DNA of 62,920 nt, the filler included, from Licmophora abbreviata (taxonomy: Eukaryota): assembly GCA_900291995.1 (NCBI GenBank). It is 13 parts of 13 records of this genome, joined end to end, with 100 filler letters (N's around TTAATTAATTAA, not from the genome) between each part and the next. Parts side by side here need not be neighbours in the genome. Positions count along the whole stretch, not along the records: positions 1 to 13,990 come from OLMU01002641.1; 12 more parts are not named here. The stretch is one strand, 5' to 3'. The notes beneath the pieces were generated by a model. The model did not search any database. It was not told the DNA's origin and saw only the letters and a program-made list of their open reading frames with translations. A program made the position numbers and the translations under genes. The number at the start of each line of letters is the position of its first letter. The stretch's first letter is position 1. Below, piece by piece: positions 1,617-4,734 of this stretch.

Positions 1617-4600
1617 CTACTTCCTCTGAACAACGCTGACTTTTCCAGAACTGCAGTCGATTCGGATGATGTCTCCGTCCTACAAAGGGCAGCGAGGAAA
1701 GCAGAGTAAGAAAACATGCATCGATGGCGTCTCAAGACAGATGATCCCGCAGTGGCCCTTCGACACGTACCTGGAACTTCCTTGTCGCCGCCTGCGATCC
1801 TACCACTGCAGGGATGCCGTACTCACGGGCAACGATGGCAGCATGCGAGAGCATTCCGCCATAGTCGGTGCAAATTCCAGCACTGAGACCGATAACAACA
1901 TTGAAACTGGCACTGCAGCTGAATGTGACAATTATGTCTCCTTTCTTGACCTTCTGAAGATCACTCTCGCTCAAGACAAGGCAGCAGGGGCCATCAACAA
2001 TACCAGCCGATGCAGCGCGGCCCTTGACAGCATTCGGGTTGTTCTCAATGTCCTCGTCGTCGTCCCCCTCCGCACCTTCTTCCCATACGCCTCGAAGGAG
2101 ACCCGTATGGATGGCTCCCATCGATCGGCGGATGCTAGGTGGGAGAGTCATTGGATCAGGTGGAGGCGGGGGCGTTCCAAGCGCCCGTGGGATGAGATTC
2201 GGGTCTGCTGTCTGAATGTAGTTGTAACGGCGTTCCAGCTCGAGCGGTGTGGGAATGTCCACTGGGCCAAGGGGCATTGCATCCCCGCTCAGTAAGCTGA
2301 GATCGCCTCGGAGAAGAGCAATTGCCTCCCTCTTTGTAGTCACACAAAGATGGTTTGGCTTCATTATCACTCCCTGATCGGTCAAGCGGCGACCGGCCTC
2401 CAGAATGCCACGGCGACACAAGCCGATCCCAGTAAGGTCCGTGCAGAGACCACGTTCGTCACGCATGCGAAAAAATCGGCGACCAATGTCAAGAACAGTC
2501 TCGAATTCTTCATGCTTCTCTTCAGGCAAGGCACTCTTCCACTCATCAGCCAGCTTCCGAACCTTCGCCTCTGCCATACGACTTCTGTTGGGGTCTTCGG
2601 TGATACCGGTGTTGAGCGTCTTGAGAAAGAAAGCCGGGCTTTCGATCACTGCCGCCGTCGTTAGGTCGTATGATCCTGCTAGGCGCCAGCCATACTTGAC
2701 CATGACTCGTTTCATCACGTCACCAAGTTCGCCTGGCATGTGAAGTAGACAGTCAACTGCCCAGTTGGCTTTACTCTCATCGGTCGCCAGTAATTTCATC
2801 GCATCATTGGATTCGCCGAGCAGCTCATACATCTCGGCGAGAAGAGGATCCTCGCGATTGAGAAGGCCTCTCGACTCAGGCGATGCGCTTTCCAGTAGAG
2901 ACAATGTTTCCATCTCTTCTTTTCCGGTTAGCGCTGCCATGCGGTTCATATAGTCGCCAACAATCACGAACGTGGGGAACGTGTAGGTATGGTGACGCGA
3001 CCAAAATTCTCTTGCCAGATCAAAGCACCGGGCCACATGCTCAACGAGCTGTCGATGGCTCAGAGACGCGGGGTTTACCTTCTGAAGCTCTTCGTGGAGA
3101 GCTTCACACTCGGGGACAAAGAAATCTCGAAACTCTCGATAGTCATCTTCATACAGCTTTTTCGTCCAGTAGGCTTCTGCGGAACGCTCCAGCTCGGGGG
3201 ACGGAGGAACAAAGATGGGCTGAGTGTAGGCAAAGCCGTGAACAAACCGCATGCTGATGTCCTTGAACAAGACACCGGCGCGGCGTCCATTCGTGCTGCC
3301 GTACTTGAAGCTGTAACACTCTTGCATCCACGGTGTAAACGGTCGAGGAAAGTGAGTCGGGTCAAATGTCCAGAATCCTTCGCCGGGCGGCAAGAATGAA
3401 AGAGATCCCGTGCTTGCGAGCGTCGTGATCGGACGAGACTGTAGAACTTTCAGGTCACCATTGGTGTCGATTGCCCACTCGATATCTTGGGGGCGATTGT
3501 AGAAGTCTTCGATTGCTCGAGCTAGCAAAGTGATGTCCTGGACCAATTAAAGTGGCTTCAATCAGATATACAGCAAATTGTAGTGGCTGATCAAACCAGC
3601 AGATAAAAACTCACCTTAAGGTTCCGTTGACTCAGAACTGGGCCTTCGATGGACTCATCAAGACCTACTTTTACAACACCGTCCTTGTTGTTAGCACGGA
3701 CGAACTTGTGAGTCGGCTTTGTGAGATCTTGGTAGCAGAGCTTGGTGCTATACTTGTCGACAACGTATCGATCTGGCGTTATCTCGCCACTGACCATTCC
3801 CTCACCCTGTCCAAGTACGGCCTCAATCATGGTTTCACTTTTCGCTCCCCAGATATTCTAAAAACCGAAAGCGCACCGGGCGACGAAAAGACAATAAGAA
3901 CAGAAGATCAAACGTGTTCGCAATGTTGTGTTCGACCCAATATGTTTCTCTGCTTACCTGAGAAAAGCAAACTCCAGACGCTTTGGCCTCCACCATTTTC
4001 ATAATGAGTACTCCCATCTGAGGAGCCTTCATGGAGCCAACGCGATAGACGTCAGGCTCCGTACTGTCGCCCACTGGAACATCCAGGAAGCTATCTTTCG
4101 ACGCATACTCTAGAATGTGACTCTTGAACATGGACGCCCAGCACGCCTTGACGGAATCGACCACTTCATCAAGCGTCTTCTTGTACAAGAACGTATCGTA
4201 CTGACCCGCAAACGACTGGGAGGCGAGATCCTCCGCACTGCCGCTGGAACGGACCGCCACCTCCGCACCGCTTCCTAGCTCACTGAGAAACGTGTCGAGA
4301 TTGAGGATGACTTCCGGGTTGAGGGGAGTCGCGATGATTTTCTCGCGAATCGTGGCGAGTTTTGCTTTCGTGGCCTCCCGGATGGCCTCATCGCGAAGAT
4401 CACTCGAGAAGACTTCATTGACTAGGTCCGCCACACCCGCGTCAAGGATGTGCATGGAATACACGTATGTGGGGATAACGAATGCGGCGGGGACGGGGAG
4501 CCCGTGACGCATCATGCGCCAGCACTGAAGTGCCTTTCCTCCAACGAGAGCCAGTGTGGCGTTTTCGTAGCTGGCGAGTGTGGATCCTAGGGAGGGATCG

Positions 4601-4734
4601 AATTTTGATCGATCGAGTTCGGCTTGAAACTCAACCAGTTCCTTGCGGGACACCATGGACATGCGCGATGATCCGGGGGGAAGGTTCCAGGAGCCGCGTG
4701 TCATGTAGGCGGAGACTCTGCGCCCGGATGACAT
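1617..4734 (-). CDS. PEP-synthase-superfamily dikinase with rifampin-phosphotransferase/PigC-like domain order (ATP-grasp, substrate domain, C-terminal phospho-His swivel); exons 4734-3958, 3857-3615, 3537-1771, 1679-1617
   Basis: ATP-grasp motifs VGGKA, VAVRSSGSAED, SFAGQYDTFL, GQGEGMVSG, PQDIEWA and LQSRPIT. C-terminal swivel motif TDYGGMLSHAAIVAREYGIPAVVG. Three GT-AG introns join the ORFs in frame, ending DGDIIRIDCSSGKVSVVQRK*. Confidence 0.88.

Follow-up and report, generated by a model that had tools for sequence, protein, structure and literature searches.

Substrates described for dikinases of the rifampin phosphotransferase (RPH) type include rifamycins, phenols, and prodiginine precursors. 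In PMC4844700, RPH orthologs are described from bacteria and archaea, Arg666 and Glu667 are required for the second transfer, that to the substrate, and distant clades retain both residues while the substrate changes. A gene encoding a dikinase of this superfamily was found in the diatom Licmophora abbreviata (assembly GCA_900291995.1), on the first contig of a 62,920-nt window, the whole stretch of DNA that was analyzed; this contig occupies window positions 1–13990, and the window contigs are separated by an N run at 13991–14090 and 11 further N-run pairs. On balance, we consider it probable that the gene is intact, occurs once, and encodes a small-molecule dikinase of the RPH superfamily, probably located in the cytosol, that belongs to an uncharacterized family and is neither an RPH, a PigC, nor a phenol kinase; its chemistry, pocket, and location are inferred, and the class of its substrate is a guess.

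Gene structure, domain order, and catalytic residues

The gene runs from 4734 to 1617 on the minus strand in four exons and encodes 949 amino acids (aa) with one stop codon and no internal stops (Table 1). Its three introns (100, 77, and 91 nt), each GT–AG and in phase 0, appear to be spliceosomal, as the original prediction had them, and the spliced protein aligned without gaps over all three exon junctions to 9/9 full-length orthologs (58–86% identity). Intron 2 falls at the same codon boundary in the four genomic ortholog loci checked (L038, L039, L041, and L043, which are close kin of each other); the introns of other ortholog loci are located elsewhere. Of the nine orthologs, eight terminate no more than three residues from where this protein ends, and the ninth is extended by ∼26 aa. 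RNA from one run at a 0.05 share yielded three pieces, two of them short and exonic and the third repeat-like and of low identity, and none contained a joint. The introns, the eukaryotic-looking neighbors, and the presence of one copy in the assembly rule out bacterial contamination as the source of the gene. Elsewhere in the assembly, an intronless, bacterial-looking PtsP-like gene (L020, G000:C5119) suggests that bacterial contigs are included.

Pfam placed PPDK_N in exons 1–3 and PEP-utilizers at the end of exon 3, so that the domains are ordered as ATP-grasp, substrate domain, and C-terminal phospho-His swivel, the layout of the RPH superfamily; no PEP-utilizers_C barrel was found by Pfam in the gene, and nine orthologs likewise have none. 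The original prediction had proposed just this order, with the swivel motif LSHAAIVARE at the C-terminus, and the gene model, Pfam, and the orthologs all agree with it. The middle domain begins at PPGEGFWTFDPTHFPRP, as claimed, and is ∼445 aa long, where roughly 430 had been given. The claim that the protein is not a pyruvate phosphate dikinase (PPDK) or phosphoenolpyruvate (PEP) synthase also stood: further exons encoding a PEP barrel were looked for by Pfam and at the ends of the nine orthologs and none was found, and a separate intron-containing PEP-synthase-type gene with a barrel (L019) is present in the assembly. In glucan water dikinases the His domain precedes a C-terminal ATP-binding domain. 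That order is reversed in the Licmophora dikinase, in a comparison of layout only.

The AlphaFold2 model built for exon 3 from an alignment of 118 rows reached a predicted local distance difference test score (pLDDT) of 93 and a predicted template modeling score of 0.89, and its best Foldseek match was Listeria RPH (E = 1e-15). RPH was likewise the best match for this model in VIA (Z 22.4, root-mean-square deviation [rmsd] 6.0, 478 aligned), with the next entry at Z 7.2. A full-length model of the ortholog P0060 matched RPH with Z 36.1 and rmsd 13.3 over 769 aligned residues, and the large rmsd would fit a differing pose of the domains. A hidden Markov model (HMM) match to the RPH arm and block 9 was obtained (E = 2e-10), and in the ESM Atlas the middle domain fell in Rph_4th clusters at 0.96; an ESM Atlas search with the relative P0165 gave no usable match.

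The numbering of the Listeria RPH reference agreed at all 25 published positions checked, and in alignments to it Arg666 corresponds to R699 and His825 to H905, and Glu667 falls on either D700 or E701, according to the aligner used. Seven of the eight RPH ATP-site residues checked are identical in the dikinase; RPH Lys670 has no clear counterpart, and R702 may stand in for it. Among the non-diatom rows of alignment A1, H905 is conserved in 100/100, R699 in 94/100, D700 in 95/100, and H522 in 96/100, and H402 in 91 of the 94 rows that have a residue there.

Table 1. Features of the Licmophora abbreviata dikinase gene, in window coordinates.
Feature	Position	Strand	Remarks
N-terminal tail, aa 1-31, acid-free, Arg/Ser-rich, RRVS motif	4642..4734	-	disorder predicted; may be a kinase-site tail or a mitochondrial presequence
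Exon 1 (aa 1-259)	3958..4734	-	N-terminal tail and first portion of ATP-grasp (K67, R162, G177, T181); PPDK_N E=2e-37
Intron 1, 100 nt	3858..3957	-	GTAAGC..TTTTAG, phase 0
Exon 2 (aa 260-340)	3615..3857	-	ATP-grasp continued; PPDK_N E=7e-10
Intron 2, 77 nt	3538..3614	-	GTGAGT..GTCCAG, phase 0; position common to other genomic orthologs
Exon 3 (aa 341-929)	1771..3537	-	end of ATP-grasp (E360, Q373, R375), entire substrate-binding domain, most of swivel
Substrate-binding (middle) domain, aa ~386-830	2068..3402	-	fold like RPH rifampin-binding domain
W396-x2-D399-x2-H402, putative pocket residues	3352..3372	-	common to phenol kinases and other non-RPH relatives
H522-H523	2989..2994	-	H522 lines up with an invariant His of phenol-kinase-type subunits (9/9)
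R699-D700-E701-R702	2452..2463	-	counterpart of RPH catalytic Arg666-Glu667, from alignments
His905, phosphocarrier (RPH His825)	1843..1845	-	in LSHAAIVARE, 44 residues before protein end
Intron 3, 91 nt	1680..1770	-	GTACGT..TTGTAG, phase 0
Exon 4 (aa 930-949 and stop)	1617..1679	-	final strands of swivel domain; no barrel after

Relationship to described families, distribution, and origin

For HMM scoring against NCBIfam cut-offs, the ortholog P0060 (86% identical) was used in place of the spliced protein, and all 12 proteins scanned fell short of every cut-off. The scores of P0060 (bits/cut-off) were 251/999 for RPH (NF041857), 275/1300 for PigC, 251/1350 for RedH, 283/740 for PEP synthase, 45/843 for PPDK, and 130/578 for PRK08296.1-5. 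Identity between the dikinase and RPH was 24% over 803 columns; validated clade A RPHs are >42% identical to RPH-Lm (PMC4844700). One of the 11 rifampin-contact residues (Q336, Y351, T354, P356, A357, M359, V368, L387, L478, F479, and M673) was identical when the profiles were forced into a global alignment, in which positions are approximate since this region was not locally alignable.

All trees were built under LG with no mixture model, and the PigC, PpsA, HpeH, and CreH references, with PigC represented once, were identified in annotated plasmid records through their gene context and not by literature accession. With the ATP-grasp domain (39 rows; five more rows were left out, the cutting motif not being found in them), approximately unbiased (AU) tests rejected the grouping of diatoms with RPH (p = 7e-6), PigC (p = 0.005), PEP synthase (p = 5e-6), and the bacterial small subunits (p = 0.013). 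In the best trees of the middle and His domains, the diatoms fell within the unnamed family and were separated from RPH, PigC, and PpsA/HpeH/CreH, and in no best tree did they group with RPH; AU tests on 28 rows of these domains rejected both diatoms with PigC (p = 0.013) and diatoms with phenol kinases (p = 0.005). The particular kinship with RPH or PigC that the original prediction had put forward was thus not upheld, as all curated cut-offs were far missed, the pocket region could not be locally aligned with RPH, and the nearest relatives form an unnamed family. Its proposed phylogenetic comparison had a divided outcome: grouping with PigC or PEP synthase was rejected, whereas grouping with RPH was rejected on ATP-grasp only and not on the middle and His domains.

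Diatom orthologs were 49–86% identical to the Licmophora protein, and 48 of the 59 middle-domain matches lay at 49–85%. Names were looked up for 10 of the 48 diatom clusters; these included Fragilariopsis cylindrus (OEU14749.1, named "pyruvate phosphate dikinase" in the database), Attheya septentrionalis, Attheya sp., metagenome-assembled genomes of Bacillariaceae, and an MMETSP Nitzschia record, and no Phaeodactylum or Thalassiosira name was among the ten. Single-chain relatives, ∼30% identical, were found in the red alga Erythrolobus madagascarensis (P0145), in Luapelamoeba hula (P0147), and in Dracoamoeba jomungandri (P0407), the latter two of which we take to belong in Amoebozoa. The record names indicate transcriptome assemblies and suggest that the red-algal and amoebal genes are expressed, with contamination of a single transcriptome being possible. 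Some relatives carry the JGI automatic name "rifampicin phosphotransferase." PMC5124317 describes two cytosolic "PEPS" isozymes in Cyclotella cryptica that are absent from T. pseudonana, and these two could be members of the family. No description of the family or of any eukaryotic member was found in the literature searched, in which the papers dealt with bacterial or archaeal enzymes or with diatom and algal carbon metabolism in general; supplementary gene lists of diatom horizontal-transfer surveys may already include such genes. The family is a conserved branch, as yet without a name, of a known superfamily, and it seems to be unreported in eukaryotes.

The bacterial forms include many subunits of 545–570 aa that comprise the middle and His domains (779 representatives at E up to 0.001, and 114 matches in another search). 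Among 24 bacterial loci in which such a gene comes first, an ATP-grasp gene is directly next or fused in 23, and a cyclic-nucleotide (cNMP)-binding domain is fused or adjacent in 19; 17 of the 24 were retrieved by patterns from one protein, P0049, to which seven (L001–L007) are 83–99% identical, and the cNMP domain occurs in two of the seven loci found otherwise. The module (L001–L017, L141, and L142), consisting of the middle-plus-His subunit, a 272-aa ATP-grasp subunit, and the cNMP-binding domain, is laid out as three genes, as an ATP-grasp–cNMP fusion, or as a single 962-aa chain (L012:6977-9862). One bacterial triple is that of Synechococcus sp. 1G10, made up of WP_094555648.1 and the next two genes. 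Among the neighbors in 30 bacterial loci, only the ATP-grasp gene, the cNMP-binding domain, and sometimes a helix-turn-helix regulator recurred between unrelated genomes, and no metabolic or biosynthetic gene did so near the two-gene forms. The family is sparse: counting seed genomes and using single-protein queries, it was present in 7/301 genomes in the phylum of genome G001, at 500 bits or above, and in 2/401, 2/251, and 1/301 genomes in the phyla of G002, G005, and G003, respectively. Five family dikinases (P0165, P0172, P0180, P0245, and P0278) have a C-terminal radical SAM/SPASM-like domain, by weak Pfam matches, and form a clade sister to the eukaryote-rich group; this clade is presumed to be bacterial from an uninterrupted 1304-aa frame on a 165-kb contig.

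In two picocyanobacterial assemblies the family gene seems split or truncated (L007:7070-8546 and L018:4035-4725). On a Bacillus cereus plasmid, a two-gene RPH-superfamily dikinase lies within a nonribosomal peptide synthetase (NRPS) cluster, between NRPS and thioesterase genes (L081:8911-11515), and similar matches occur on two B. thuringiensis plasmids. Matches in viral sequences (48 loci) were all weak (best E = 3e-13) and centered on the His domain, and PADLOC gave no match to the dikinase or the subunits.

In the ATP-grasp tree, the diatoms, Erythrolobus, Luapelamoeba, and two further sequences were grouped at 97/88. The middle-plus-His tree contained a 22-row clade, mostly of single-chain or truncated forms, with a Shimodaira–Hasegawa approximate likelihood ratio test support of 98; in the 28-row tree the same clade received only 73 and Dracoamoeba lay outside, as it did in the full-length tree, where the eukaryote group received only 80/61. 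Erythrolobus was sister to the diatoms in three trees (88; 88/76; 96) and not in the ATP-grasp tree. The two parts of the protein independently place the diatoms with other single-chain forms. Because several diatom genera share the gene, and a red alga and two amoebae have single-chain relatives of it, any acquisition predates the Licmophora lineage. Of the original proposal that a bacterial gene had been domesticated in this alga, an ultimate source in a bacterial family is retained, since the sequences place the gene in such a family and make it older than this alga; acquisition by this alga itself is not retained, as the gene occurs across diatom genera. A separate bacterial transfer into early diatoms, with the diatoms joined to the radical SAM-fused clade, was not rejected (AU p = 0.11), and the gene may have taken any of several routes: a single early entry with later losses, passage from one eukaryote to another, or more than one transfer from bacteria. 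A recent fusion of the bacterial two-gene pair was rejected, as the diatom ATP-grasp domain stands apart from the 272-aa subunits (AU p = 0.013) and the bacterial read-through fusions (L012 and L013) have the opposite order. As to a cyanobacterial origin, query P0164 recovered the family from no genome but the seed, out of the 301 searched in that phylum.

Candidate chemistry, regulation, and rival explanations

In profile comparison, the family matched phenol-kinase-type subunits from residue 394 over 506 columns (E = 4e-50, 19% identity) and RPH only from residue 539 over 337 columns (E = 4e-35); the family profile aligned end-to-end with PpsA, but its alignments to RPH and PigC were confined to the C-terminal portion of the middle domain. 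W396, H402, and H522 are invariant in 9/9 phenol-kinase-type rows, while R699, D631, and E639 follow RPH. The motif W-x2-[DN]-x2-H together with a helix His, defined in this analysis from nine sequences and not from a paper, is present in the dikinase, and W-x2-[DEN]-x2-H is absent from 6/6 RPH-type sequences and from the PigC. The V-[AGS]-x-H-Q-Q block found in 5/6 RPH-type sequences is replaced in the dikinase. W396, D399, H402, and H522 are putative pocket residues; the motif argues against a rifamycin pocket and, weakly, for a phenol.

By analogy with RPH and HpeHI, as described in PMC4844700 and PMC12167813, the enzyme would catalyze ATP + H2O + X-OH -> AMP + Pi + X-O-P, with phospho-His905 swiveling between the ATP site and the substrate site. 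This chemistry is probably of a known type, and the dikinase would work like RPH without being an RPH. At a guess, the acceptor X would most likely be a hydroxyl of a small ring compound other than a rifamycin; a phenolic X is the best single guess, and one that we would expect to fail more often than it succeeds. A Bacillus subtilis flavonoid phosphotransferase (named in a title by Hsu et al., 2023), if RPH-like in architecture as it is said to be, would be a single-chain precedent for action on phenolics. The dikinase appears to work alone, outside a clustered pathway; no biosynthetic genes were recognized among the scanned neighbors in its contig. The roles offered in the original prediction, detoxification of antibiotics or allelochemicals or a part in secondary metabolism, are conjectural.

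The original prediction saw no obvious targeting peptide, a point made less secure by the tail, which is acid-free, basic, and Arg/Ser-rich, with sites like those of protein kinase A (PKA). Residues 1–31 contain no Asp or Glu and six Lys/Arg, and in the P0060 model pLDDT was <50 for residues 1–27. The motif [RK][RK]x[ST] occurs in 13/13 diatom N-termini (16 sites, against a shuffled mean of 4.1 and a maximum of 13 in 5000) and in 2/36 long open reading frame (ORF) starts of the window, of which the dikinase is one; there are 30 occurrences of Rx[ST]-hydrophobic, against 4.8. As the [RK][RK]x[ST] motif was selected once the sequences had been seen, and these 13 proteins share ancestry, the p-values are too favorable. 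By the PKA consensus, the motif reads as a cluster of PKA-type sites. In the cNMP partner domains, F-G-E..R-x-A, the motif of the cyclic-nucleotide-binding cassette, is intact in 11/11 aligned. The PKA-like tail and the intact bacterial cassette together suggest possible cyclic-nucleotide control.

Next to the dikinase, and ∼155 nt from it tail-to-tail, is a class III adenylate/guanylate-cyclase-like gene (window 4-1462, plus strand; Guanylate_cyc E = 1e-5) with a probable intron at ∼1140-1226. Positions 5404-7018 (plus strand) hold a gene for a major facilitator superfamily (MFS) transporter, with a change of frame near 6660-6714 at a T run that is possibly a frameshift or an assembly error. 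Linkage to adenylate-cyclase-like, MFS, or DUF2358 genes had no match in 12 other ortholog loci, many of them short or transcript-like.

Several observations weigh against parts of the preferred reading, a dikinase of an uncharacterized family acting on a small ring compound. A clade of diatoms with RPH was not rejected by AU tests on the middle and His domains (p = 0.24 with 53 rows and p = 0.052 with 28 rows), and diatoms and phenol kinases as a single clade were rejected (p = 0.005). The W-x2-[DEN]-x2-H motif is not phenol-specific, occurring in 275/327 family sequences, 20/22 middling relatives, and a subunit encoded within a Bacillus NRPS cluster, and phenol kinases have Val at the catalytic Arg of the dikinase family and RPH. 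The putative pocket residues are only presumed to cluster in space, and the basic N-terminal tail could indicate a mitochondrial location. The RPH clade left unrejected by that test, together with RPH as the best structural match, the equivalents of R666, E667, and H825, the bacterial relatives that stand alone as resistance genes often do, and the JGI automatic names, would also fit a kinase that inactivates rifamycins or other antibiotics, as RPH does; we regard this as very improbable, however, given an identity well below that within validated clade A, a single match among the rifampin contacts in a region not locally aligned, the replaced V-[AGS]-x-H-Q-Q block, and the low RPH HMM score, and a distant-clade homolog was inactive on rifampin (PMC4844700). 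It is unlikely, if less so, that the phospho-product is only an intermediate and the protein an ATP-dependent condensing or dehydrating enzyme of secondary metabolism like PigC/HapC. These enzymes have the same three domains and an equivalent His and Arg (PMC13534948), proteins of the sister clade carry a fused radical SAM/SPASM-like domain by weak Pfam matches, and a more distant relative lies in an NRPS cluster; yet the PigC score was 275 against a cut-off of 1300, diatoms with PigC were rejected on both domains (p = 0.005 and p = 0.013), and no biosynthetic neighbors were recognized in the contig or recur around the bacterial two-gene forms.

Somewhat more plausible, and still a minority view, is a cyclic-nucleotide-regulated housekeeping dikinase of an endogenous metabolite, which refines and overlaps the preferred reading; the bacterial cNMP domain would sense cyclic AMP (cAMP), and the diatom enzyme would be switched when PKA or another basophilic kinase phosphorylates its tail. 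The cNMP domain in 19/24 bacterial loci with its cassette in 11/11, the tail motif in 13/13 diatom N-termini against 2/36 window ORF starts, the predicted disorder of the tail, and a strong conservation across diatoms that fits a steady function speak for it. Against it, 17/24 loci came from P0049 patterns, with seven near-copies and the domain in 2/7 elsewhere; the tail motif was chosen after the sequences, from related proteins, had been viewed; the red-algal and amoebal N-termini, as viewed, have no tail; and the cyclase-like neighbor was found beside none of 12 other ortholog loci, many of them short. Its widest form, an undescribed dikinase family controlled by cyclic nucleotides in bacteria and eukaryotes alike (through an adjacent or fused cAMP-binding domain in the former and a diatom PKA-site tail in the latter) that entered eukaryotes early as a single chain, was retained in diatoms (which it possibly reached via the red-algal endosymbiont), a red alga, and amoebae, and acts on an endogenous metabolite or signal that would be new to these organisms, is a speculative reading of the sequences that we think rather unlikely. 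Finally, a pyruvate-converting enzyme, either PPDK or PEP synthase, is scarcely credible. It is suggested by the database name of OEU14749.1 and by the top NCBIfam matches, which are PEP synthase models matched through the shared ATP-grasp and His domains, but there is no PEP/pyruvate barrel in the gene or nine orthologs, a separate PEP-synthase-type gene is in the assembly, the AU test gave p = 5e-6, and the PPDK HMM score was 45/843.

A conserved, intron-bearing member across diatoms, with red-algal and amoebal relatives, points to an unrecognized, ATP-costly phosphorylation in major primary producers, and the dikinase is a concrete enzyme for knockout metabolomics. As the barrel-less Fragilariopsis ortholog is misnamed, PPDK/PEP-synthase inventories of diatom carbon metabolism may include such genes.

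Comparison with known systems

PEP synthase and PPDK share the ATP-grasp and His swivel with the dikinase (P0060 vs. 2OLS: Z 34.7, rmsd 2.2, 306 aligned), but their His domain is central and followed by a C-terminal PEP/pyruvate barrel, whereas that of the dikinase is terminal and the barrel is missing; in addition, Met-Leu-Ser precedes His905, without the regulatory Thr described in PMC12167813. The prodiginine ligases PigC, RedH, and HapC (PMC13534948) are alike in domain order, catalytic His, and an equivalent Arg, and differ in that the PigC and RedH models scored 275/1300 and 251/1350, a middle-domain BLAST was not significant (E = 0.83), a joint clade was rejected, and no pig cluster was recognized near the dikinase.

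The phenol dikinases PpsAB, CreHI, and HpeHI (PMC12167813) have a substrate domain that aligns end-to-end with the family profile, sharing W396, D/N399, H402, H522, and an acid at 700, and their two-gene layout is the same as that of the bacterial members of the dikinase family. They differ in an identity of only ∼20%, in V-E-x-H where the dikinase family has R-D-E-R, in forming a separate clade (AU p = 0.005), and in consisting of two separate subunits with ∼45% mutual identity, whereas the Licmophora dikinase is a single chain with a PRK08296 score of 130/578; the reference loci adjoin carboxylase or P450 pathway genes, and none like them was recognized beside the dikinase. RPH (Listeria RPH-Lm, PDB 5FBU/5HV1; PMC4844700) resembles the dikinase in its single chain, domain order, fold, ATP-site residues, Arg-acid pair, and His. 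The dikinase is set apart from it by 24% identity, a rifampin-contact block that is neither conserved nor alignable, an HMM score of 251/999, and its eukaryotic host, introns, and Arg/Ser N-terminal tail.

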